Positions 8,582-44,471 of a stretch of 64,000 nucleotides of DNA are shown one piece after another (positions within the stretch are counted from its first letter, which is position 1; each line of letters starts with the position of its first letter). The stretch lies in IMG/VR virus record IMGVR_UViG_3300033145_000692, positions 36,908 through 100,907 of that record. The stretch is one strand, 5' to 3'. The translations under genes and the position numbers were made by a program. The DNA is from a virus. The notes under the pieces were generated by a model. That model searched no databases, was not told the origin of the DNA, and saw nothing but the letters and a program-made list of their open reading frames with translations.

Positions 8582-8653
8582 TTGTGGAGGGTGGAATCGA
8601 ACCACCGACAATGGGCGTATGGAACCCATGAGATACCACTTCTCAACCCCACA
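8582..8653 (-). tRNA. tRNA-Met(CAT), initiator-like with atypical anticodon arm
   Basis: TGTGGGG TT GAGA AGTGGTA TCTC A TGGGT TC-CAT-AC GCCCA TTGTC GGTGG TTCGATT CCACC CTCCACA A. Confidence 0.8.
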
Positions 8654-28800: not shown

Positions 28801-31800
28801 TTAAATGCGACCTGAACCTCGCCGTATCTCACGACGAAAAGCCTGCATCACTTCGCGACCCGTTTGTCGGGGACTCGAAGACTCACTGACATTTATCGAC
28901 ACATCGCCGATGTTGGTGGTCGAGCCACCCGACTCACGATACACCGGAGTTCTCCCGGCATTCATTGCTTGAAGTTGTGAAAAGAAACGCCTCGAACTTT
29001 TGGCGTTGACAACAAACTCACCTTCTGATAACATCGCAGGGATAGTGTCCGTCCCACGTCCACCAGAAGCAAAGTATCCAAGTGGTCCACCCTTTGCCGC
29101 TGTGACAGCACCAGAAGATAGACTCGATTGAGCCGACGCCGCTGCCTGGACCGTCTGAAGCAATTGTCCGTAGCTCGCTACTAAATTGTCCACAGCAGCT
29201 TGTGTGTTGCTCACAGCCGATGCGTGCCCATCCTGGGCAGCGTTCGTACTCTGCAACTTCATGTTGATCCCATCGACCGAAGACTGAAGCTGATCGGCAC
29301 CAGTCTTTGCCTCAATAAACGGATTCTGGAATCTTTGGTCCCCTGCTTCAGTGCTATTAGTGGGAGGCTTAGGTTGGACAACTGCGTTTGCTGCTGCGTT
29401 TGCTGATGCCCTTGACTCCAGATATTTCTGGGCCAATACACCAACAGCCTCAGATTCTTCTTTGATAGCTGCCATGGTAAGCTGCTGAGCCGCTGCTTTC
29501 TTCTGTGCATCACCCTCAGCCATGAGAGACATGATGTGTTTAGTCTCCATCATACCATTGGCACGTTTGTTCACTGCCTCCTCTTCCTGAAGAGACTTGA
29601 CTTCAGCACTCGACTGATTGGCAAAGCTGGAGTAAGCATCCTCTGAAGCCCTCTGTCGGATGATAGCGGCTTGACCCAACTTCTGCATAGCAGTATTGAG
29701 TTCGCCGAGGTGTTGATCATACTTCTTCCGATCGCCACCCTTCCCAAACAAACCTGTCGAAAGGCTGTCTTGCAACGCCCTACCGGCGGTTGCTATTTTA
29801 TTCACCTCCGCGATGGTTTTGGGACCTTGGTTAGCCAACTCAACCAAATCAGCCTGGAGCTTATTGATGCCAATGGCTACATCGTCAGGCACCATCATAG
29901 CCTCTCCACCAACACCAATGTGACTAACTTCACTGAGTTGAGTAATCTCCTTCAGAATGTTGAGGGACTTTGTGAGAGAATTTTGGTATTCAACTTCAGC
30001 CTTCTTAGCACCAGCCCGACCTTCGCTAGAAGCTTGCTCAGCTTCAGATTGACCTGCCTTGGCAAGATTGAAGCTTCCCATGTCTTCGAGATTGATACCC
30101 TTTTTGTCCGCATAGAATTGGACCTTCACACGGGCTGGGTCTTTCGCGAAGAATGCTTCAAATGACGATTTGACCTCCTGTTGAATGGAATCCATATTTG
30201 CTGGAAGAGCAAGCAACGTTTGCACTTCGAGTTCAGCTTCTGAGATAGCCAAGTTTTCAACAAGCTTCTGAACCAGTGGGGAAGCATCGGCACCAAATCT
30301 GTCAACACCAATGTCGACAATCTTGAAGAACTTCTCCATCTCCTTTTCAAGTTCTTTCCGATTTGCCGTCATATCCGATTGAGACATGAACTCACCATCC
30401 TTGGTCTGATCAGCAAGCTTCGCAATCTTATCCTGGCTCCCCTTCAGAGCAGCCGCCCATCCTGCGGCATCTTTCGCGCTGACTTTCAGATTTGCTGAGG
30501 TTTCCTTGAGCCTTGATCCATACTTCTTCTCAGCTTCGATCATCTTCTTGGTCATTTGTTCAACACTTGAGTTGACCTGTAGACGATACCTGTCGTTATC
30601 AGTGCTCTGTGTCAAGGAGTACGCCTGTTCGTTCAAGGCGATGGCTCTCTTATGAGCCGACATTGCGATTTCATGTTCCTGATCAGTGGTTGCAGACGAC
30701 ATCAAGCTAAGGGCTCGCTGAGACTCCTCAGCAGACTTCTGCATGATCTTCCGCAGTTTCACTGTGTCAGATTCTGTCGCATCAAGACCCCGTTGGAACA
30801 AGGTATCTTCCAGACCTACCGCCAGACTAGCAGCAGTCTTCTGTGATTTCTCAACAGCCTTATCAGCTTCGATCGCAGCCGACTTTATTGCCTCAACAGC
30901 AGCGAGACGAGACTTGACAATACCATCCAGAGCCCACTTTGTGCTTGTGACGAGAGCGGAATTAGAATCCTGGGCAACGTCGATTCGATCCATGTAAGCC
31001 TTGCGATTTTCCGCAAGTTCTTTGGCACGAAACTTCTTCAACTGCTCAAACTTATGCTTCTCAGCCGAAAGCTCCTTGTCGATTGACAACTGGCGTTTTG
31101 CAACCGCCTCGTCGTTAGCAGACGCTGCATCAGCGATATCCGCTGCCCTCAGATTTGCAACGCGGGTATTGTACATCTGCATCGCGAGAACCGAAGCACT
31201 TATCACAGCAACTATCCCAAGTGAAGCTTGAAGCAGTGTGAACGAAGCGGCAGCTACCCCATTGGCGATCGCCATAATTTTCGCCTTCAATGCAAGGGCA
31301 CCCATCGCGATACCAACAGCACCGAGTCCGGCAGCAACCACTGGTAGAGTTCTACCCATGGAAGTCAGTAGAACGATAACAGTGTCAGCCCCTCCGACAA
31401 ACTGTGACATGTCGTTGAAAGCCGCCAAGACAGACTGTCCGAATTCAACTGTGAAAAAGTTCTTCAACTTGTTCAAGTCTTTTGTGACCTTCTCAGCGTC
31501 TGTTTCAATAACCAACTTGTAGGCTTTGTCGTATGCATCCTGAAGGGCTTGGTGCTGTTCCTTCAACGTCCTGTTAAAATGCTGAGCCTCATCGTTGACC
31601 AAAGTCAACACACCAGTCAAGCCACGGATACGTGGGAACAACTTCGCGATCGCAGCGGCATTACCTTCGGTGGTTCCTGTAACCGCTCTGACAGCATCCT
31701 GAAGATTATAGGCTTCCAGGACTTGTTCACCAGTGGCGAACCCAAGCTCACGCATCGCAGCCTTCATTGCTGTGGTAGGCTTCAGGAAGCCCTGCATTGT

Positions 31801-33198
31801 ACCACGAATCTGCGTGAACGCCTTGTCTGTCTTGATACCGTTGATTGTCAACGTCGCCACAGAAGCATTCAACTCTTCCATGGAGATACCAAGCTTGTCA
31901 GCAATAGGCGCAACGGTACCATACCCCTGTGCCAATTCCTCAGCACGGGTACGACCTAATTCGATTGTCTTGAAGAATTTGGCGGCAACATCATCTGTTT
32001 CGCCAACCTCTTTCCCAAAGGCATTCAGCACACCAGAGAGAAGGTTGACAGACGTTGCCATGTCTGTCTTTGTTACTTTGGAGAACTTGGCAGCCGAGCC
32101 AAGGAATGATTCAACATCAGCCTGAGTACTGGCGATCTGGTTTGATACCGTTTGGTAGGCAGCTTCAGCAGTGCCTGCGAGACCCACATTGAACTGATCT
32201 GATACCCTGTTCACCATGGAACCAATGTCATCAGCGGTACCGAGTTCCCTACCAATGGTGCCAATTTCTGCAACGGATCTCTGAAACTTGACAGCGTCTT
32301 TAACAGCCGCTCTCAATCCCGCACGGATAGCACTCAGAGCCCGAACAATGGCTTGGGTTGCCATAACCCTTGTCATAGTCTGCCACGTGACAGTCATTCC
32401 ATTAGTGGCTGTCTGACCAGCAGAGGACATCTTTTGCATATCGTTGGCGATCTTGTTCGCCGGGCCTGTCAGAGACTGTCCCAGCATCCCATGGATCGCG
32501 ATCAACTGATTGATGCTCATACCACTATTGAGAGCAGCTTCGGCAATCTTGGTCGACATTGACAACCAGTTTCGCTTCTGGGCGTCTGTAGCTTTTTTTG
32601 ACAGTGGGATAAGTTTTTGCACCTCGACTGCATACCGCGATGTGTCTGGTGCCGGGATAGCAACCCTTGATCGCCCACTGATCTTTGCCAGAGCATCCGC
32701 CATCTTGTTGGCGGTACCCGTCATATTCTGAGTCATGTCCGCATTGGTAGATGCGAGGTCGGCTGCCGTCTTCTTGTGCTTCGATGCATACTCGGCAGCG
32801 GCGGTAATGGCTGTTTGGAATGCCCTCTTCTGCTCCTTGGAAGCTGTACCAGCGATCTTGTACATACTCTGCAATTGAGAGATGTACGAAGAGAGGTCGG
32901 GCGGCTTGACAGAAGTGGCGGCTTTTGCAGCAGTGACGGGTGTAGCTTGTTTTGGAATTGCAGAAGCTCTTCCTTGGAGACTGGCAACCTTCTGTAGCTC
33001 AGTCGCCGCAATCTTAGCGTTGGAAGACAGGTGTTTGAGAGCAGCTACCGTCTTACCAGCTTTCGCATTAAACGCCGTGAAACCTGCCGGAGCAGCGGTG
33101 ACACTGGCATTCAAGGCTTGCATCGACTTGTCAAGGTTGGCTAATGTGGCGATTGCCTGACTGGCATCAAACCCCATTTTTTGTTCAATATCTGACAT
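28801..33198 (-). CDS. Tape measure protein
   Basis: 1465 aa, Ala/Lys-rich and helical, TP901-type core, C-terminal GTDTIPAMLSEGEFVV. Confidence 0.93.
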   Translation of the reverse strand: MSDIEQKMGFDASQAIATLANLDKSMQALNASVTAAPAGFTAFNAKAGKTVAALKHLSSNAKIAATELQKVASLQGRASAIPKQATPVTAAKAATSVKPPDLSSYISQLQSMYKIAGTASKEQKRAFQTAITAAAEYASKHKKTAADLASTNADMTQNMTGTANKMADALAKISGRSRVAIPAPDTSRYAVEVQKLIPLSKKATDAQKRNWLSMSTKIAEAALNSGMSINQLIAIHGMLGQSLTGPANKIANDMQKMSSAGQTATNGMTVTWQTMTRVMATQAIVRALSAIRAGLRAAVKDAVKFQRSVAEIGTIGRELGTADDIGSMVNRVSDQFNVGLAGTAEAAYQTVSNQIASTQADVESFLGSAAKFSKVTKTDMATSVNLLSGVLNAFGKEVGETDDVAAKFFKTIELGRTRAEELAQGYGTVAPIADKLGISMEELNASVATLTINGIKTDKAFTQIRGTMQGFLKPTTAMKAAMRELGFATGEQVLEAYNLQDAVRAVTGTTEGNAAAIAKLFPRIRGLTGVLTLVNDEAQHFNRTLKEQHQALQDAYDKAYKLVIETDAEKVTKDLNKLKNFFTVEFGQSVLAAFNDMSQFVGGADTVIVLLTSMGRTLPVVAAGLGAVGIAMGALALKAKIMAIANGVAAASFTLLQASLGIVAVISASVLAMQMYNTRVANLRAADIADAASANDEAVAKRQLSIDKELSAEKHKFEQLKKFRAKELAENRKAYMDRIDVAQDSNSALVTSTKWALDGIVKSRLAAVEAIKSAAIEADKAVEKSQKTAASLAVGLEDTLFQRGLDATESDTVKLRKIMQKSAEESQRALSLMSSATTDQEHEIAMSAHKRAIALNEQAYSLTQSTDNDRYRLQVNSSVEQMTKKMIEAEKKYGSRLKETSANLKVSAKDAAGWAAALKGSQDKIAKLADQTKDGEFMSQSDMTANRKELEKEMEKFFKIVDIGVDRFGADASPLVQKLVENLAISEAELEVQTLLALPANMDSIQQEVKSSFEAFFAKDPARVKVQFYADKKGINLEDMGSFNLAKAGQSEAEQASSEGRAGAKKAEVEYQNSLTKSLNILKEITQLSEVSHIGVGGEAMMVPDDVAIGINKLQADLVELANQGPKTIAEVNKIATAGRALQDSLSTGLFGKGGDRKKYDQHLGELNTAMQKLGQAAIIRQRASEDAYSSFANQSSAEVKSLQEEEAVNKRANGMMETKHIMSLMAEGDAQKKAAAQQLTMAAIKEESEAVGVLAQKYLESRASANAAANAVVQPKPPTNSTEAGDQRFQNPFIEAKTGADQLQSSVDGINMKLQSTNAAQDGHASAVSNTQAAVDNLVASYGQLLQTVQAAASAQSSLSSGAVTAAKGGPLGYFASGGRGTDTIPAMLSEGEFVVNAKSSRRFFSQLQAMNAGRTPVYRESGGSTTNIGDVSINVSESSSPRQTGREVMQAFRREIRRGSGRI

Positions 33199-33695
33199 TA
33201 TCCCACCTTAACTTTTGTTGTTTTCAGCGACTTCCATGGGTCCGGCAACCTAACATCAGCAGCAACTTGTTTGAAGACTTCCCGACCTTTTTCCTGAAAC
33301 CGATAGGGTCCAGGTTTCTTCAATTTGGCGAAAACAGCAGGATCGCCTTCTGGGCTGTTAAACTCGTTCCAAACCAAATGTCGAAGATCTGTTCCATACT
33401 CGAATGTGTATTCCCCTTTACTGGAGTCAGAAGTCATCTTACCCTTGCTATGAGCAATACCTGTACTAATATCACTCTTGACTATCGGTGAGATCGACAA
33501 GTTGAAACCAACCTCGCGCGATAGGGCGAGAAACGTTGCCCGTGATGCACCTGACCAAGTTGGAATCTCATCAAGAACTGTGTTGAGCCAAACAAAGGCT
33601 GCATGAGCAATCTCTTCTGAGAGATGCTCATGCAACCGTTTTCGGTAGCCCTCTAAGTCGAAGTGCAGCGAGGTAAGCGATCCTTTGAACTTCAT
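33198..33695 (-). CDS. Tail completion-like protein (HK97 gp10-like)
   Basis: PTWSGASRA motif; TAATG coupling to the tape measure gene. Confidence 0.5.
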   Translation of the reverse strand: MKFKGSLTSLHFDLEGYRKRLHEHLSEEIAHAAFVWLNTVLDEIPTWSGASRATFLALSREVGFNLSISPIVKSDISTGIAHSKGKMTSDSSKGEYTFEYGTDLRHLVWNEFNSPEGDPAVFAKLKKPGPYRFQEKGREVFKQVAADVRLPDPWKSLKTTKVKVG

Positions 33696-33710
33696 GATCA
33701 ACAGTCTCCA

Positions 33711-33965
33711 CTACCGGCGTGATCTTCTCCCAGGTAATTTCGGAGAGGCATGAGCCTGTTTTACAGGCTCGCCCGCCTCATCGTGAGAACACACTTGGTC
33801 AAACGCAAGAATCATTGCTTGAGTTTGAACACCATTCTCTTCCCACGATGGGTCTACACCGGGTGGTAGGATGCCTACTCGGACGCAGGCTTGCCAGATG
33901 GCGTAGGTACCGGTCCGGTACTTGGGCCAGAGGATTCGCTTTGAGTTGACTGCTGACCAACAAGA
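33711..33965 (-). CDS. Predicted -1 frameshift extension of the tail assembly chaperone (G-T type)
   Basis: Open -1 frame with no start codon near its 5' end: WPKYRTGTYAIWQACVRVGILPPGV...AMILAFDQV...RR*. Confidence 0.55.
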   Translation of the reverse strand, partial: SCWSAVNSKRILWPKYRTGTYAIWQACVRVGILPPGVDPSWEENGVQTQAMILAFDQVCSHDEAGEPVKQAHASPKLPGRRSRR

Positions 33966-34405
33966 AAAGACTCTCGCGCCTGCTCAAGCTTCTCCTCATC
34001 GAGACAGTTTGCTTGGAACACAAGCTGTTGGACACGGTTGCATTCAACCTGATTAAAGCCAGCTTTCTTCAAGTCATCCGCCCAATTCTCCCACGTCTTT
34101 GGGTTCTTGATATCCACGGTATCCCATGTGATATCACTCGGAGCCAATGATAAGACGATCAGCCAAGCCAACCGCTTCTTCCCATAGGTCGCCATCATGT
34201 CCTTGTAACCAAGGTCCTCCAGGTTGTCCACCCAGCCGATCTTAGGCTTGTGGATGACAGGAGCCTTTGGCTCCGGACAGACCTTGTTGAAGGGTTCATA
34301 ATCAGGAACACCTTGGGCTCGGAAGACGATCTCACCCTCACCACGTGGTAATACGAGGAGCACTTCATTCGGTAAGGTTTGTGGGTCTACACCACCAATT
34401 CTCAT
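33875..34405 (-). CDS. Tail assembly chaperone
   Basis: Located after the tail tubes; GGGAG RBS; low-complexity tail after ARESFL. Confidence 0.7.
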   Translation of the reverse strand: MRIGGVDPQTLPNEVLLVLPRGEGEIVFRAQGVPDYEPFNKVCPEPKAPVIHKPKIGWVDNLEDLGYKDMMATYGKKRLAWLIVLSLAPSDITWDTVDIKNPKTWENWADDLKKAGFNQVECNRVQQLVFQANCLDEEKLEQARESFLVGQQSTQSESSGPSTGPVPTPSGKPASE

Positions 34406-34425
34406 TTTGTTCTCCCTCAAGATTT

Positions 34426-34461
34426 GAAAAGAAAGCCCGGGGATGGGTGTCATCCCCGGGC
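34426..34461 (-). terminator. Rho-independent terminator after the tail tube genes
   Basis: GCCCGGGGATG/CATCCCCGGGC stem followed by TTTCTTTT. Confidence 0.8.
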
Positions 34462-34488
34462 TACGTCACTCAACTATTGGCCACTCAA

Positions 34489-35523
34489 CTATTGGGCGGT
34501 TCGGTTTATTGTTGGCTGGGTCACATTGCAGCTACCAGAGACAGCAACACTTGCTTCGCCTAGATCAACTTCTCGACTATTCGATCGGAAGTCAGAGAAG
34601 ACAGTCGTTTCGATCGCCTGCGTAGTGCAGATTGGGGTGTGGACCACCTCAATGTCAATCGCGTAGGGTTCGCACACGTCACTTGACGCACTCACCCACC
34701 CGGAAGCCCCACCCTCCTGCTTCAAAGCATCCATCGGAGAGATGGTTTCGCCAGTACCGGTCGTAATGTACTCATACACAAAGTCGAGACTCACATCCAT
34801 CGGGACATCGTTACCGGCACGAACTGTGTCAAGGACACCTCGGTCGAGATCGTACTCATACTCGTTCGCTTCCGTGTAGGTCACATTGCCTTCACCAACC
34901 TTAATGTCGATCTGCTGAGGAAGGAACGTGATAGCCTTACCATTTATGGGCAGGTTGGCAGCATCCAATGCGGGAGTGAAAGTCAACTCCCAAGTTGTTG
35001 CACCTGCATGGAGGAGTGTCACATCCTCCGAACCGGCGTCGGCAAGATCAACATCCTGGATTGTCATCAACGCAACATCGGTGGCAAGGTAGGTTCCCTT
35101 ATACTCGACAATATACGAGACACCAGCAGAACCGGTAACCTCAATATCACCAGCAGTGATATTGGCAAGAAGTTCGAGAGCCGCTTGAACAGCCGCCGGC
35201 GTTGCATTATAAGCAATGCTGGCGGTAGGACCTTCACCATCCCATGTCAGGGTATAGTTACCACTACTTGGTGTATCCAAGAAAATGGTTTGTTGCTCGT
35301 TGGAATTCGCAGCCGTGATTGTGAAGACTGTCAACGGAGACATGTCAGCAACAGTGAAACGGACACCAACGGGTAGGATTGTCACAGCACTTGGGAGATC
35401 GGCAATCGTGTCAATCTCCAGAGTCGTATCGGTCCCTGCAATCGCAACGTCTTCGACAGCAGCAGAACCATCATAGCCGTCCTTCATTCGGACAACTGTG
35501 TTCTTAAGTTCGATCCTGGCGAT
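34489..35523 (-). CDS. Major tail tube protein 2, carrying an inserted decoration domain; probable ATC start
   Basis: Paralog of 35535..36293. TAAGGAGGT followed by ATC GCC AGG ATC GAA CTT AAG gives (M)ARIELKN, matching the paralog N-terminus. Confidence 0.8.
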   Translation of the reverse strand: MARIELKNTVVRMKDGYDGSAAVEDVAIAGTDTTLEIDTIADLPSAVTILPVGVRFTVADMSPLTVFTITAANSNEQQTIFLDTPSSGNYTLTWDGEGPTASIAYNATPAAVQAALELLANITAGDIEVTGSAGVSYIVEYKGTYLATDVALMTIQDVDLADAGSEDVTLLHAGATTWELTFTPALDAANLPINGKAITFLPQQIDIKVGEGNVTYTEANEYEYDLDRGVLDTVRAGNDVPMDVSLDFVYEYITTGTGETISPMDALKQEGGASGWVSASSDVCEPYAIDIEVVHTPICTTQAIETTVFSDFRSNSREVDLGEASVAVSGSCNVTQPTINRTAQ

Positions 35524-35534
35524 ATCACACCTCC

Positions 35535-36293
35535 TTACTGGGCGGTTCTGGAAACAGAGGGTTGGGTCACATTACAACGACCAGAGACAGCAACGCTTGC
35601 TTCACCAATGTCAACTTCACGACTGTCTGATCGAAAGTCCGAGAAAATCGTTGTCTCAATTGCCTGTGTTGAACAGATCGGTGTATGGACCACCTCAATG
35701 TCAACCGCATAGGGCTCACAGGCGTCACTAGAAGCGCTTCTCCATTCGGAAGCCCCTCCAGCCTGCTTCAAGGCATCCATCGGAGAGACAGCCTCTGCGG
35801 TATGCGTAGTGATGTACTCGTACACAAAGTCAAGACTCACATCCATCGGAACTTCGTTGCCAGCACGGACAGTATCGAGGATGCCTCGGTCGAGATCATA
35901 CTCATACTCGTTCGCTTCCGTGTAGGTCACGTTACCGTCTCCGATCTTGATGTCAATCTGAATCGGAGCGAAAGTAACGACTCCTTCATCAAGGTATGTC
36001 CCTGCACCCAGGGCGGGTGTAAAGACAATGTTGGTTGTAGTCGACGCCCCATTGGAGGGAGTTCGTTCTGTGACGGTATGGACCGTCGTGGCAGCCGTTT
36101 CACCTACAACAGTAAAACGAGCACCAATCGGAACCACATCGGTTCCTAGCCCCCCGGCGTTGAGCACAAGGGTGTTAATGTCAAATTCAGTGTCGGTTAC
36201 GACTGGAGCCGTAGTATCCTCGTCAATTGCACCTGCTCCACTGAGACCGTCCTTGATACGGACAATTGTGTTTTTAAGTTCGATGCGTGCCAA
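35535..36293 (-). CDS. Major tail tube protein 1 (TTG start)
   Basis: AGGAGG RBS; lies between tail terminator and chaperone; C-terminal half near-identical to tube 2. Confidence 0.8.
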   Translation of the reverse strand: MARIELKNTIVRIKDGLSGAGAIDEDTTAPVVTDTEFDINTLVLNAGGLGTDVVPIGARFTVVGETAATTVHTVTERTPSNGASTTTNIVFTPALGAGTYLDEGVVTFAPIQIDIKIGDGNVTYTEANEYEYDLDRGILDTVRAGNEVPMDVSLDFVYEYITTHTAEAVSPMDALKQAGGASEWRSASSDACEPYAVDIEVVHTPICSTQAIETTIFSDFRSDSREVDIGEASVAVSGRCNVTQPSVSRTAQ

Positions 36294-37820: not shown

Positions 37821-39263
37821 TTAGCCAAGCATGACTACACCAAGGTTAGCGTCAAGCTGTTTGATACCAGCGAGGATATCGCAATTCACGACTGTACCAC
37901 CAGCGTCGATATCGTACTGCATCGTGACTCGCATCGCGACGTTCTCGAAGTCCGCAACACCACTCAGCACACCAAGAGCACCAGCCGGGACAGCCAAGGG
38001 GCGTGTCACCAGAGCCATCGCTTCGCGGTGGAAAGCCAAGTTGAATGAGCCAGCGGGACCAGGGAAAGCGTTGTCACCCGAGGAAACCTCTACTTCCAGG
38101 GGGCGATCCAGCATGATGTCCACACCAGAAGAGGAGTTGTCTTCCACCTCGATGATAGTGTAGGTATGCCGTGCTGCGCCAGCGGTAACACCAAACGAGA
38201 CCAACTGACCGATTTGCGGATCATTGGAGTACCCGGAAGCAACATTCATAACGCCGACATGACCAACAGCATAGGTCGTGGCGTGCATCGTCCACTCCGT
38301 GAAGAGAGTGAGGACGGCGGATGCCTCGTTGGCGTACTTCAGTGGTTCGTTGACCGTGATGCCCGTGGTATCGGTCGACGCGGTGACATCGGTAACCCAC
38401 TTGGGCTGATCATCGCCAGCGATAGTGACATAGCTACCAACCACAGCTTCCTTGGCGGTGATAGTGCAGAGACCCGTGGAAGCTTTGGCCAGGGTAACCC
38501 CAATGGCATTGGCACCAGTGATAGTTCCGGTCACGGTGTCCGCCGACACGAGGTCACAGTACGGAACGTTCTGGGCGAGCCAGGTATTGAAGCCAAGGAT
38601 ACGACCAAGTCGGGCGTTCTCCAAAGCCACACCACCATCGCCTCGCTCATTCGCTCTGATGAACAACTCATTCTGGAGCAAGGCAGTCTCGCTCATGGCG
38701 GACAGCACCAGGTGTCGCTGGGCGTCCAGGGGAGCGTTCCGACGGTTGAGCTTCTCACGAGCGTCCAACACGGTATCGTGACTGGAATCGGACGACAGAT
38801 TGAGCAGACGACCGGATCGGTTCGTCGGGGTCGAGAGGAACTGATGGAAGTGACCAAGCACGGAACGGTCAACCGAGCGGGCGATCGTTCGCATCGAAGG
38901 CACCAGGTAGATACCTACCAAATCCTTGAAGGACTCGCTCTGCTCGCCGTCCTTGATGACGAACGAGTTGTAGAACCACTGGTTCAGCAAAACCGCGACG
39001 TTGGTGGACGAGGCGTCCTGCTTCTCCAAGGTCGTGGTGGCATCAGTCTTCCGGCGAATCTTGAACTCGCCCGGCTTGCGGGTGTTGACCGTGTCGCCGA
39101 AGTTGGCGATCTTGTTCTCGAAGTCACGGTGGACCAAGTTGGCGACTACCATCTCCTCTTGAAGCTGCATCAGACCTTCCATCGCCCAATGTTCGGGGAC
39201 GAAAGCGTCATTGTCGTTGGCGAAACAGGCCACTTCGGGGGCACTAATGTAGAGAGAATTCAT
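37821..39263 (-). CDS. Major capsid protein (P22 coat gp5-like) with insertion domains
   Basis: VANLVHRDFE..FGDTVN, GRILGF, NLAFHREAMALVTRPL, DILAG. GGAG RBS before MNSLY (alternative start 39278). Confidence 0.9.
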   Translation of the reverse strand: MNSLYISAPEVACFANDNDAFVPEHWAMEGLMQLQEEMVVANLVHRDFENKIANFGDTVNTRKPGEFKIRRKTDATTTLEKQDASSTNVAVLLNQWFYNSFVIKDGEQSESFKDLVGIYLVPSMRTIARSVDRSVLGHFHQFLSTPTNRSGRLLNLSSDSSHDTVLDAREKLNRRNAPLDAQRHLVLSAMSETALLQNELFIRANERGDGGVALENARLGRILGFNTWLAQNVPYCDLVSADTVTGTITGANAIGVTLAKASTGLCTITAKEAVVGSYVTIAGDDQPKWVTDVTASTDTTGITVNEPLKYANEASAVLTLFTEWTMHATTYAVGHVGVMNVASGYSNDPQIGQLVSFGVTAGAARHTYTIIEVEDNSSSGVDIMLDRPLEVEVSSGDNAFPGPAGSFNLAFHREAMALVTRPLAVPAGALGVLSGVADFENVAMRVTMQYDIDAGGTVVNCDILAGIKQLDANLGVVMLG

Positions 39264-39337
39264 CGTGTTGTTCTCCATGGAACGGGTACACTTGTTTGTT
39301 TACGAAATAGATACCCCCGAAGGGATCAAACGGTCGA

Positions 39338-40895: not shown

Positions 40896-43800
40896 CTATT
40901 GACCTACCCAGGAAAACTTACTCTCCTTGGATGCTTCTACAGTTTCAACAATGGTAACAGTTTTCGTTGCACCTTTTTTAGTCTCGGCAACACTGACTGT
41001 CAACGCATTACCGGCGACCGATGTCGCAGGTGTGAAGGTGGCAGCATGTCCAGCAATTGACGTTGCTGGGGTGATAGTTGCCGTGTGTCCTTCTGTTGAT
41101 GTCGCTGGTGTAACAGTAGCCTCGTTACCAGGAGTCGGTGTAGCTGGTGTAAAAGTGGCATCGTTACCAGGAGTCGGTGTCGCTGGTGTGAAAGTGGCAG
41201 TATTCCCAGGAGTCTCTTCAGCAATAACAGGTGTACCGCCAAGTAGGAGTGTGGAATCGGCAGTCATAAGAGCAACATCAGTTGCAGCATTAGTACCTTG
41301 GAATTCCACAACCCAGTCGGTCCCTGGACCAGCGCCACCTGTAACAGCAACAGTGTCGATGTTGCTAAGCAACTCCAATGCTGTCTTAATATCGGCGGCT
41401 ACATCATCATACGTTATCGCTCCGGTTGGACCTTGACCATCGAAGGTCAATGTGAACGAACCACTGTCGGAGTCATTAGGAATGTTGATTGTCTGTGTCT
41501 CGTTGACAGCAGCCACACCCTTAACAGTTTCAGTGATAGTCACAGTCTTACCGGAAAGAAGTGTACCATCCCCACCCATCTGAACCACTCCGGTATCAGC
41601 GAGGGCACCTTGGAATTCACAAGCCCATTCAGGAGCCGTACCAGTAACTGACATGTCACTGTCACCGATGTTAGTCAAAGCGATTAGGGAAGCCTGTACT
41701 ACACCAGCGGAGGCGTTATATGCAATCGTGCTGGTTGTCTGACCATTATAGGTCAGTGTGAAAGTTCCTCCGGTTACTGTTGCTGGAATCGAGACGGTTT
41801 GAATCTCGTTGTTGCCACCACCACCTGACTGAGTCTCAATGACAGTCACATCGGAGCCAGTTAAAAGGGCTCCATCGGCGGTCATCGCATCAATATCAGC
41901 ACCAGCCAGAAGAGTGGCAAATGTAACAACCCAATCGGTATCCGGACCTGGTCCACCAGAGACAACAACATCCCCGGCACCAATGTTTGATAGAGCTTCC
42001 AGAAGACTATCAAGCGTGCCGAAAGTGTCATCAAACTGAATAGCTCCGGTTGTCTGACCAGCATAGGTCAACGTGAATGAGCCACCTGTCGTATCACTAG
42101 GGATACTGACTGTTTGAACTTCATCAACCGCAACAACACCCGGGACAGTTTCAGTGATAGTCACAGTACGACCAGACAACAGAACACCACTTCCTGTGAT
42201 CGCAGAGATAGGCTGTTGCTTCAAATTGACGCCAAACTCAACTTCCCAAGCAGGGGCAGTACCAGTGACAGTCAAATCGCCAACAGTAATGCCCGCCAGA
42301 GCTTCCAAAGCGTCCTTGACATCCGTAGTCGAAGCGTCAAAAGCGATGGTGCCAGTGGTATTACCATCCCATGTCAACGTGTATGTTCCACCGGTCGCAT
42401 CGGAATCAATTGTGACACTTTGAACTTCATTTGTTCCAGCAGTTCCCGTGACTTCAGAGAGGTCGGTGAAACCAAGAAGTGCATCAAAAGTAAGTGTGTA
42501 AGGACCACCAGCAGCACCAGTGACAACAACATCAGCAGGAGCAATGTTGGACAAAGCCTCCAAAGCTGCCTGAACTGTTGCAGCATCAGCATCATAGGCA
42601 ATCATCGCGGTAGTCTGAGCATCATAGGTGATGTCAAAAGTATCACCAGCAACTGTACTACCCAATGTGATTGTCTGAATTTCGTCTGTCCCAGCATCGC
42701 CAGTGACTTCCGACACATCCGTATTTTCCAGGAGTTGATCAAAGGTTAGCGTCCAAGGACCTCCAGCAGAACCTGTGACAAGGATATCACCAGCGGTGAC
42801 ATTTGACAAACCTTCCAAAGCGGTTTGAACTGTAGCAGCGGCAGCATCATAAGCAATGTCGTCTGTCGTTTGACCATCATAGGTGACATAAAATGAATCA
42901 CCCGCTATAGTCGAAGCCAATGTGATTGTCTGGATTTCATCAGTTCCACCAACCGCCGTAACCTCAGTCTGAGCAGCATATCCAAGAAGCTCACCAAACG
43001 TCAAAGTGTACGGACCACCAGCAGAACCCGTGACAACACAATCATCGGTGTCAATGCCAGAGAAGACTTCCAAAGCCGTCTGGACTGTCCCTGCGGCAGC
43101 ATCATAAGGAATGTCAGTCGTTGTCTCACCACCCCAAGTGATAGCGAACGTATCACCAATGATAGTTCCACTGAGTGTCAGTGTTTGTACTTCATGGGTA
43201 CCCGCAATGGCGGTTACTTGGGCAAGGTCAGTAAAACCAAGAGTTGCATCAAAAGAAAGTGTGTAAGGACCCCCAGCAGACCCTGATACAACAACATCAC
43301 CAGCGGTTATACCACCCAAAACTTCCAAAGCCGCTTCAACTGTTGCAGCAGAAGCATCATAAGGAATAGGAGTGGTCGTAGCAGCAGAATAGGTGATGTC
43401 AAAGGTATCACCAACTTGTGTGTTGGAAAGTGTCAGTGTTTGAACTTCGTCTCTCCCAGCGTCACCAGTGACTTCCGACACATTCGTATTGGCCAAGAGT
43501 TGATCGAAGGTTAGTGTCCAAGGACCACCGGCACCACCAGTAACAATGATGTCACCAGCGGTTACATTCGACAGAGCTACCAAAGCTGCCTGAACTGTAG
43601 CAGCGACGGCATCAAGGGGAATGTCGGTCGTTGTCTGACCATCATAGGTGATATAGAACACATCACCAGCTTGTGTGCTTGTGAGTGCCACAGTCTGGAT
43701 TTCATCAGTACCACCAACACCTGTGATGGCTCCCATGTCTGTGAGATCGAGATTGCCAGCGAAGGTTACAACTACTGGCGTACCAGGGGCGGGACCACCA

Positions 43801-44471
43801 GACAGTACAACATCGCCAGATTCGATACCATCAAGGGCTACCAGAGCCGCAAGGATCGTGGTGTTATTGTCGTCGATATCCAATACAGTGGTCTCCTTGG
43901 CGTCCCAAGTCAACGTATACGTATCCGTAGAAGCATTACCCGAATAGGAAATTGTTTGAATTTCGTCAACACCTACATCAGAGGCAACAATGAGGGACTG
44001 GTCAAGACCTGCAAGATCACCTGTGAACTCGACAGTCCAGGGACCTCCACCAGAACCAGTGATGGTCCCATTACCAGCACCTACTGTCGAAAGACCCTCG
44101 AAGGCGGTTTCGACCGTGGCAGCAGAAGCGTCGTACGCAATAGCCGCTGTCATCTGACCATCGAAGGTCAGCTTGAAAGTCTCATCAGCCACACCACTAT
44201 TGTACGTAACAGTCTGCTGTTCGTTCTGAGAAGGATCAGCTACAACAAAAATCTTGGCTGGGTCGTCAATCGCGATCCACAACTCGTCACCAGCAGACAA
44301 CTCGAAACCTGTGATGGTCGTGACACCAGTCGTCCCAACATAAACGATGTCAGAATTACCTGCCGCCGCCTTGATCATAAGACCATTGGAGAGTGTTCGG
44401 GTAGTACTAATAGCGGCTGCCGCAATTTCGGCACCACCATAACCAGTCTTTATTTCACTAAACGCTGTCAT
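40896..44471 (-). CDS. Large repeat-domain virion decoration/fibre protein (11 'EVQT' domains)
   Basis: 11 copies of an 85-105-aa domain (dEvQt...ftltydGqtT..iaydA..vqaALeaL..i..gdv.VtG..ggpwt.tF) plus seven 13-aa C-terminal repeats. Confidence 0.85.
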   Translation of the reverse strand: MTAFSEIKTGYGGAEIAAAAISTTRTLSNGLMIKAAAGNSDIVYVGTTGVTTITGFELSAGDELWIAIDDPAKIFVVADPSQNEQQTVTYNSGVADETFKLTFDGQMTAAIAYDASAATVETAFEGLSTVGAGNGTITGSGGGPWTVEFTGDLAGLDQSLIVASDVGVDEIQTISYSGNASTDTYTLTWDAKETTVLDIDDNNTTILAALVALDGIESGDVVLSGGPAPGTPVVVTFAGNLDLTDMGAITGVGGTDEIQTVALTSTQAGDVFYITYDGQTTTDIPLDAVAATVQAALVALSNVTAGDIIVTGGAGGPWTLTFDQLLANTNVSEVTGDAGRDEVQTLTLSNTQVGDTFDITYSAATTTPIPYDASAATVEAALEVLGGITAGDVVVSGSAGGPYTLSFDATLGFTDLAQVTAIAGTHEVQTLTLSGTIIGDTFAITWGGETTTDIPYDAAAGTVQTALEVFSGIDTDDCVVTGSAGGPYTLTFGELLGYAAQTEVTAVGGTDEIQTITLASTIAGDSFYVTYDGQTTDDIAYDAAAATVQTALEGLSNVTAGDILVTGSAGGPWTLTFDQLLENTDVSEVTGDAGTDEIQTITLGSTVAGDTFDITYDAQTTAMIAYDADAATVQAALEALSNIAPADVVVTGAAGGPYTLTFDALLGFTDLSEVTGTAGTNEVQSVTIDSDATGGTYTLTWDGNTTGTIAFDASTTDVKDALEALAGITVGDLTVTGTAPAWEVEFGVNLKQQPISAITGSGVLLSGRTVTITETVPGVVAVDEVQTVSIPSDTTGGSFTLTYAGQTTGAIQFDDTFGTLDSLLEALSNIGAGDVVVSGGPGPDTDWVVTFATLLAGADIDAMTADGALLTGSDVTVIETQSGGGGNNEIQTVSIPATVTGGTFTLTYNGQTTSTIAYNASAGVVQASLIALTNIGDSDMSVTGTAPEWACEFQGALADTGVVQMGGDGTLLSGKTVTITETVKGVAAVNETQTINIPNDSDSGSFTLTFDGQGPTGAITYDDVAADIKTALELLSNIDTVAVTGGAGPGTDWVVEFQGTNAATDVALMTADSTLLLGGTPVIAEETPGNTATFTPATPTPGNDATFTPATPTPGNEATVTPATSTEGHTATITPATSIAGHAATFTPATSVAGNALTVSVAETKKGATKTVTIVETVEASKESKFSWVGQ

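Follow-up and report, generated by a model that had tools for sequence, protein, structure and literature searches.

An ATC/ATA codon behind an extended Shine-Dalgarno sequence as the probable start of a decorated tail-tube paralog in an uncultured phage and its relatives

Where does translation of a phage structural gene begin when no ATG, GTG or TTG opens the conserved part of its reading frame? The question is raised by two adjacent tail-tube paralogs, which we call tube 1 and tube 2, in a 64,000-nt stretch (the window) of IMGVR_UViG_3300033145_000692, the record of an uncultured long-tailed phage of 100,907 bp that is estimated to be 98% complete. The plain paralog, tube 1, begins with TTG-GCA-CGC-ATC-GAA-CTT-AAA, and the paralog decorated with an additional domain, tube 2, reads ATC-GCC-AGG-ATC-GAA-CTT-AAG from position 35523. 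A sequence-only reading of this DNA had described the start codons, the Shine-Dalgarno sequence (SD), the reading frames and the out-of-frame GTG, and all of these statements were found to be correct when the window was read again. The explanation that we favor, with a probability of about 70% for the whole of it, is that tube 2 is a separate gene, translated by SD-anchored initiation at AUC. Its narrower part, that translation of tube 2 initiates at the ATC of 35523, is very probable from the comparison of related sequences.

The start codon of tube 2 and its conservation

The junction between the two genes is tight, with the tube 1 stop codon 14 nt ahead of the tube 2 ATC. Two GTG triplets, at 35530 and 35528, lie within the ribosome-binding site and are both out of frame with tube 2. 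The frame of tube 2 is -1 relative to that of tube 1, so readthrough of the tube 1 stop would be out of frame as well. Upstream of the ATC, the tube 2 frame stays open for only 16 codons, none of which is ATG, GTG or TTG. No RNA structure was predicted at the junction (z = 0.11).

Relatives were gathered as 46 loci from viral contigs, 78 from metagenome contigs and 14 from genomes; the last were obtained by rescanning genome contigs with an alignment, a scan with tube 2 alone having returned no loci, and they come mostly from Planctomycetota assemblies. The codon that precedes A-R-I-E-L-K was tallied in 72 distinct tube-2-like N-termini; it is ATG in 42, ATC in 17, ATA in 10 and TTG in 3. ATC or ATA occupies the start position in 27 distinct junctions from at least 15 separate metagenome datasets, a recurrence that, judging from these sequences, lies far beyond chance. 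Since the codon is found in so many separate datasets, sequencing error is excluded. The sequence-only reading had taken the ATC for an apparent non-canonical start and looked to its conservation in relatives; this view is borne out by the recurrence, and within the clade described below ATG is not the rule.

The pattern of variation also places the beginning of the gene at this codon. At the start codon of the relatives, positions 1 and 2 are near-invariant and position 3 is variable; over codons 2-16, mean entropy is 0.74, 0.39 and 1.35 bits at codon positions 1, 2 and 3, and this period-three variation begins exactly at the ATC codon. The residues ARIELKN are kept despite many synonymous changes, and codons 2-12 are, from this comparison, evidently under purifying selection. 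On the other side of the ATC, the 4-nt spacer shows an entropy of 0.87-1.23 bits at all four positions, hence it is unconstrained, and the in-frame triplet directly ahead of ATC/ATA encodes D, T, I, S or V, depending on the relative.

The first canonical in-frame start is the ATG at 35487, which a standard gene finder would call and which would give a 332-aa protein without the first 12 residues. This ATG has no SD, most relatives have no start codon at its position, and a start there would leave codons 2-12, with their protein-level conservation and synonymous variation, outside the protein. In the relatives, the downstream distance to the next canonical in-frame start varies between 5 and 60 codons, without conservation of its position, and amounts to 53-60 codons in three of them (L011, L013 and L022). 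The shorter product would moreover lack the predicted core strands 2-5 and 9-14 of the tube fold, and structural alignments begin at residues 5-7; as the N-terminal residues form two strands of the fold, a protein beginning at Met13 would be missing part of its core. We consider a start at 35487 very improbable.

The -1 frame relation and the 16 open codons upstream of the ATC are what a tube 1-tube 2 fusion made by -1 frameshifting or readthrough would use. Such a fusion was rejected on the following grounds: in locus L013, a TGA lies in frame between the tube 1 stop and the ATC, two codons ahead of the latter; an additional base in L124 and L087 brings the tube 1 stop into the tube 2 frame, giving another frame relation; and the upstream in-frame codons are not conserved. 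No slippery heptamer was visible by eye in the 16-codon overlap. Fused tube-tube proteins, expected at ~600 aa, were not seen among the longer homologs, which comprise only forms of 442-478 aa and one of 862 aa; their domain make-up was not inspected, so that this is weak evidence. Taken together, the TGA of L013, the variable frame relation and the non-conserved downstream starts exclude both a fusion and a conserved downstream start. The other way of dismissing the codon, as a sequencing error or a pseudogene lesion, conflicts with its presence in the many datasets mentioned above and with purifying selection on the gene. Fusion, error and lesion together have a probability that we place even below that of the downstream ATG.

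At tube 2, then, the start position is taken by an AU(U/C/A) codon that relatives retain, with an extended SD and without a canonical in-frame alternative that would give the conserved N-terminus. SD-led near-cognate starts are known in E. coli from infC and pcnB. In Staphylococcus aureus and Bacillus subtilis, ccpN (AUA), cvfC1 (AUU) and infC (AUA) have conserved near-cognate starts with extended SDs that reach toward the start codon, and are initiated at about 10-30% of AUG (10.1101/2025.06.19.660503), and AUC in E. coli initiates with methionine at 1-2% of AUG (10.1101/063800). Tube 2 resembles the SD-led AUU, AUA and AUC starts in that the codon is kept in relatives, the SD is unusually long and at short spacing, and attenuated initiation is expected. 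It differs from them in that it encodes a structural protein of a phage virion, which would assemble together with its paralog, and not a regulator. In addition, its SD contains the upstream stop codon, its start toggles between ATC and ATA with ATT never seen, and it is known here from sequence alone. The features of the locus are collected in Table 1.

Table 1. Features of the tube 1/tube 2 locus (window coordinates)
Feature	Position	Strand	Remarks
Tube 1 SD	36308-36301	minus	TAGGAGGG; ahead of TTG start
Tube 1, plain tail-tube paralog	36293..35535	minus	252 aa; TTG start 36293-36291; stop TAA 35537-35535
Extended SD of tube 2	35537-35528	minus	TAAGGAGGTG, 10 nt; first three bases are the tube 1 stop TAA
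Spacer	35527-35524	minus	TGAT, 4 nt; between TAAGGAGGTG and ATC
ATC, putative tube 2 initiation codon	35523-35521	minus	ATC or ATA in 27 distinct relatives; codon-period variation starts there
Tube 2, decorated tail-tube paralog	35523..34489	minus	344 aa; frame open from ATC
First canonical in-frame ATG	35487-35485	minus	Codon 13; no SD upstream; call of the mechanical ORF list, 332 aa
Inserted decoration domain of tube 2	35307..34999	minus	Residues ~73-175 (~90-100 aa); nested in peripheral beta-barrel
Intrinsic terminator	34462-34434	minus	Strong; directly 3' of tube 2; 12-bp stem with 9 G-C pairs, then T tract

Co-variation of the start codon and its Shine-Dalgarno sequence

In a tree of tube 2 proteins, built with the first residue removed, the ATC/ATA group forms one clade (support 100/99) nested among ATG lineages. 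With 57 distinct complete genes in the tree, the start codons of the clade are ATC in 16 members, ATA in 6, ATG in 3 and TTG in 2. ATC/ATA is therefore retained in 22 of the 27 members, over a deep divergence. The larger tree requires about ten start-codon changes, all among ATC, ATA, ATG and TTG; ATT, GTG, CTG or codons unable to start were not seen at the start position of the clade.

The SD, measured as contiguous complementarity to the 16S tail complement, follows the codon. All 22 complete ATC/ATA genes reach at least 10 contiguous nt, with the same 10-nt TAAGGAGGTG in every one of them; for the 32 genes that start with ATG, the mean is 6.1 nt (range 3-10). In L085 and L087, which have reverted to ATG, the SD is altered. 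These alignments show that SD and start codon co-vary, and that the design is inherited. The 3′ end of Thermoguttaceae 16S rRNA is GGATCACCTCCTTTCT, to which AAGGAGGTG is a perfect 9-nt complement; the leading T of TAAGGAGGTG is present because it belongs to the tube 1 stop codon.

The same junction occurs once more outside the clade. Locus L122 belongs to a distant lineage (49% identity) whose tube 2 (L122:2336-3643) is a 436-aa protein with two inserted decoration domains, and it shows the identical TAAGGAGGTG, 4 nt and ATC, with the tube 1 stop within the SD. Strongly supported branches keep L122 apart from the ATC/ATA clade, and its junction would either have arisen a second time or have been transferred by itself. 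In order to check whether ATC/ATA starts are generally tolerated in this phage, the genome and all fetched loci were scanned for GGAGGTG followed by 3-5 nt and any codon opening a long open reading frame (ORF); the module of GGAGGTG, 4 nt and ATC/ATA was confined to tube genes.

Tube homologs are present on contigs of Planctomycetota assemblies, at 50-63% identity (72% in one case), several of these contigs being Thermoguttaceae chromosomes, and in one assembly of Anaerolinea. On these sequences, Planctomycetota is probably the phylum that hosts the wider group of phages. In L055 (OY762224.2), L060 (OY780964.2), L057 and L066, the tube homolog lies in Thermoguttaceae chromosomes or large contigs, apparently in prophages with a single tube gene. 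A protein of 862 aa (P0124), labelled Cladocopium goreaui and derived from a dinoflagellate assembly, also holds a tube homolog, 58% identical, and is probably bacterial or phage DNA in that assembly.

A tRNA with anticodon CAU is encoded at 8582-8653 of the window (minus strand; Rfam tRNA, 50.3 bits) and has several oddities: C instead of U at position 33, an A11:U24 pair, a U1:A72 end pair, and three anticodon-stem G-C pairs displaced by one. It could be initiator-like, an elongator for methionine or of the Ile2 type, and any link to the weak start of tube 2 would be pure speculation. The genome also encodes tRNA-Thr(UGU) and tRNA-Asn(GUU).

Plain and decorated tube subunits

The AlphaFold models of tube 1 and tube 2 have a pLDDT of 87 and 81, respectively. 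When the tube 1 model was compared with 48,161 PDB chains without a prefilter, the top matches were almost entirely tail-tube and Hcp proteins (Z 6.5-8.4, rmsd 3.4-4.2 Å, 110-139 aligned residues), spanning residues 5-252 and including HFTV1, PVC, JBD30, YSD1, P74-26, phiCD508 and SPP1 gp17.1; each Z is only middling, and the weight of the assignment comes from the consistency across matches. The tube 2 model gave the same tube-protein matches, with Z 7-8 over residues 6-344. Both proteins are thus modelled with a tail-tube fold. Searches of Pfam and PHROGs with both proteins returned no tail-tube family, only weak matches to the inserted domain, and blastn with the region gave no match among 50,697 phage records. 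For tube 1, 788 homologs were found.

The two paralogs share 76% identity in the tube core, which comprises the C-terminal 173 aa, and 37% in the N-terminal ~100 aa. Both have a peripheral beta-barrel (residues ~17-110 in tube 1), and in tube 2 it is this barrel that carries the insertion. The inserted domain superimposes on the tail-tip cage protein gp23 of Bxb1 (9d93 chain M) with Z 15.5 and rmsd 1.8 Å over 102 residues at 36% identity, and on the C-terminal domain of the Bxb1 major capsid protein with Z 13.8. Its profile matches gp23 (E 1.8e-23), the Bxb1 major capsid protein (3.5e-10), the tail tube gp19 (4.4e-4) and also Patience gp22. It is therefore a relative, in both sequence and fold, of the Bxb1-type virion decoration domains. 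It also resembles about eleven repeats, at 32-52% identity, in an ORF of 1191 aa at 40896-44471. The claim of a tube duplication, in which an insertion from the fiber domain family decorates one of the copies, is in this way confirmed by the fold and by the repeats.

The tube genes are flanked by the major head protein (37821-39278) and the tape measure (28801-33198), with small ORFs on either side, and they occupy the place between head-tail joining and chaperone/tape measure genes where a tail tube is expected. Two ORFs of 192 and 167 aa lie between tube 2 and the tape measure (33198-34453, minus strand) and have no family match; a tail assembly chaperone pair with a -1 frameshift is expected at that place. 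Tube 1 and tube 2 belong to one transcription unit that ends at the terminator in Table 1. Just before this terminator, a 15-nt unit, CCAATAGTTGAGTG(G/A), is found twice in tandem (34466-34495, minus strand), with an overlap between the first copy and the stop codon of tube 2.

In the tree of the C-terminal core halves of tube 1 and tube 2 (34489-35000 and 35535-36050, minus strand; loci L023-L035), the deeper lineages join sequences of the same genome and not those of the same paralog. This clustering fits co-assembly, concerted evolution or gene conversion between the adjacent paralogs, and is silent on the ratio of the two subunits.

Related arrangements are known in other tails. The sequence-only reading had stated that other siphoviruses set the share of decorated subunits by programmed frameshifting, and this is indeed the case for SPP1, where the decorated subunit gp17.1* is made beside gp17.1 through a +1 programmed frameshift at about 3:1 (PMC6316719). 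In SPP1 as here, plain and decorated tube subunits come from adjacent coding sequence and are mixed in one tail, and a translational device could set their ratio. However, our locus has two complete paralogous genes, each with its own start, where SPP1 extends a single N-terminus; the decoration is inserted internally and is not a C-terminal FN3 domain; and there is neither a frameshift site nor a shared plain sequence extended through a slippery site as in gp17.1*. Two major tail protein genes are reported in actinobacteriophage clusters AM, AU, AW, BI, CC, DJ and EL (PMC11080557); the likeness to our pair lies in the gene arrangement within one tail module, and unlike tube 2 no weak-start arrangement is reported there. 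In Bxb1 (PDB 9d93, 9d9x) a relative of the inserted domain also decorates the tail tube, yet it is C-terminal and present on every tube subunit, whereas in our phage it is nested in a loop of one of two paralogs.

Setting the share of decorated subunits

We propose that the initiator tRNA would pair with two of the three AUC bases, as in near-cognate initiation, and that the SD of 9-10 nt (UAAGGAGGUG), lying 4 nt ahead and overlapping the tube 1 stop, would place the ribosome on the AUC and compensate for the weak codon. The product would be a full-length tail-tube subunit with the Bxb1-type domain on its outward-facing barrel, co-assembling with plain tube 1. The AUC would lower the output of tube 2 relative to an AUG version, and may in this manner tune the amount of decorated subunit. 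From our analysis, the AUC probably gives tube 2 an output of its own that is lower than with AUG; that the selected role of the ATC is to keep tube 2 below tube 1 is possible, though we would put it at slightly less than an even chance.

Several observations speak against this explanation or its ratio-setting part. Tube 1 of the window itself uses TTG, likewise a weaker start. The plain tube 1 also starts at ATC in L011 (2003), L073 (1731) and L114 (1695), behind (A/T)AGGAGGTG and 4 nt; their tube 1 coding sequence matches that of a sister phage, L010, which starts at TTG, and it appears from this match that only the ribosome-binding site and start were exchanged. Inside the clade, tube 2 has reverted three times to ATG and two or three times to TTG, so that a stronger start is tolerated, and because ATG reappears three times, selection against it is not demonstrable statistically. 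The SD of 9-10 nt with the stop inside it may lift the use of AUC well above the 1-2% seen in E. coli. The same layout could tie tube 2 to ribosomes finishing tube 1, linking the ratio rather than lowering it. The host is a tentative assignment from related prophage-like copies in Planctomycetota assemblies, not from the ATC/ATA clade itself, and AUC initiation and its efficiency are both read from the DNA of an uncultured phage. The idea that a weak start leads to few decorated subunits, put forward in the sequence-only reading, is plausible, yet it is weakened by the tube 1 ATC of the relatives and by the tube 2 reversions.

The reversions could also mean that, with 9-10 nt of SD at ideal spacing, the identity of the codon matters little, and that it wanders near-neutrally among triplets competent for initiation, with ATC having no role in the ratio. 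About ten changes within one clade and the appearance of ATC on tube 1 in three relatives are what such drift would produce. On the other hand, it does not readily explain why ATC/ATA is kept in most of the clade across deep divergence, why the whole 10-nt SD is kept without change in just those genes that have a weak start, or why the module is restricted to tube genes. In L122, counted as a second and independent origin, this SD is again found together with ATC, and ATT, GTG and CTG are absent from the start position of the clade. We consider drift unlikely, but not negligible.

The overlap of stop codon and SD leads to another possibility, obligate translational coupling, in which most initiation on the AUC would come from ribosomes that have finished tube 1 at its UAA, are kept on the mRNA by the overlapping SD and reinitiate 14 nt downstream, tying tube 2 output to that of tube 1. 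This agrees with SD-anchored initiation on the start site and differs in how the ratio is set; coupling and a lowered ratio are not exclusive. The upstream stop does lie within the downstream ribosome-binding site, as in coupled pairs, with dependence of the downstream gene a candidate property; it is inside the SD throughout the ATC/ATA clade and in L122, always 14 nt ahead of the start. The single transcription unit, closed by a strong terminator right after tube 2, points the same way, and so does the concerted evolution of the C-terminal cores, which is expected of co-assembling partners. Nevertheless, the same module drives tube 1 in L011, L073 and L114 without an equivalent upstream stop arrangement, a hairpin separating the genes, so de novo initiation on ATC must work; and some relatives with ATG starts have gaps of 20-25 nt and no overlap. 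Obligate coupling seems to us rather unlikely, a little more so than drift.

A more far-reaching suggestion builds on SD-anchored initiation at AUC. The combination of a maximal SD, 4 nt and AUC/AUA could be a selected ratio-setting device for mixed tail tubes, evolved at least twice (in the main clade and in L122) and copied onto tube 1 in a third case, and IF3-dependent discrimination could tie the decorated share to the physiological state of the host. This is quite speculative, and we give it a low probability, below that of coupling. If it is true, initiation would do what SPP1 does by a +1 frameshift, and tails with variable decoration would result.

Two major tail protein genes in one phage, decorated tube subunits and AU(U/C/A) starts with extended SDs were each known before. 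What is new is their combination in a phage tail-tube paralog, its conservation in 27 relatives, the co-variation of SD and start codon, and the repeat of the junction in L122. One practical consequence concerns annotation. Standard gene finders, which accept only ATG, GTG and TTG, shorten tube 2 by 12 residues (332 instead of 344 aa), with the loss of two core strands; at least 27 related phages are affected alike, and public gene calls for the family lack 12 residues or have some other error at the N-terminus. The family also offers a natural series within one gene, from ATG with ordinary SDs to ATC/ATA with a 10-nt SD, together with reversions and an independent repeat. Related prophage-like copies are present in assemblies of Planctomycetota, and little work has been done on the phages and translation signals of this phylum. 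If it is true that the weak start limits the decorated subunit, long-tailed phages would have, beside programmed frameshifting, a further and novel means of setting the composition of a mixed tail tube.

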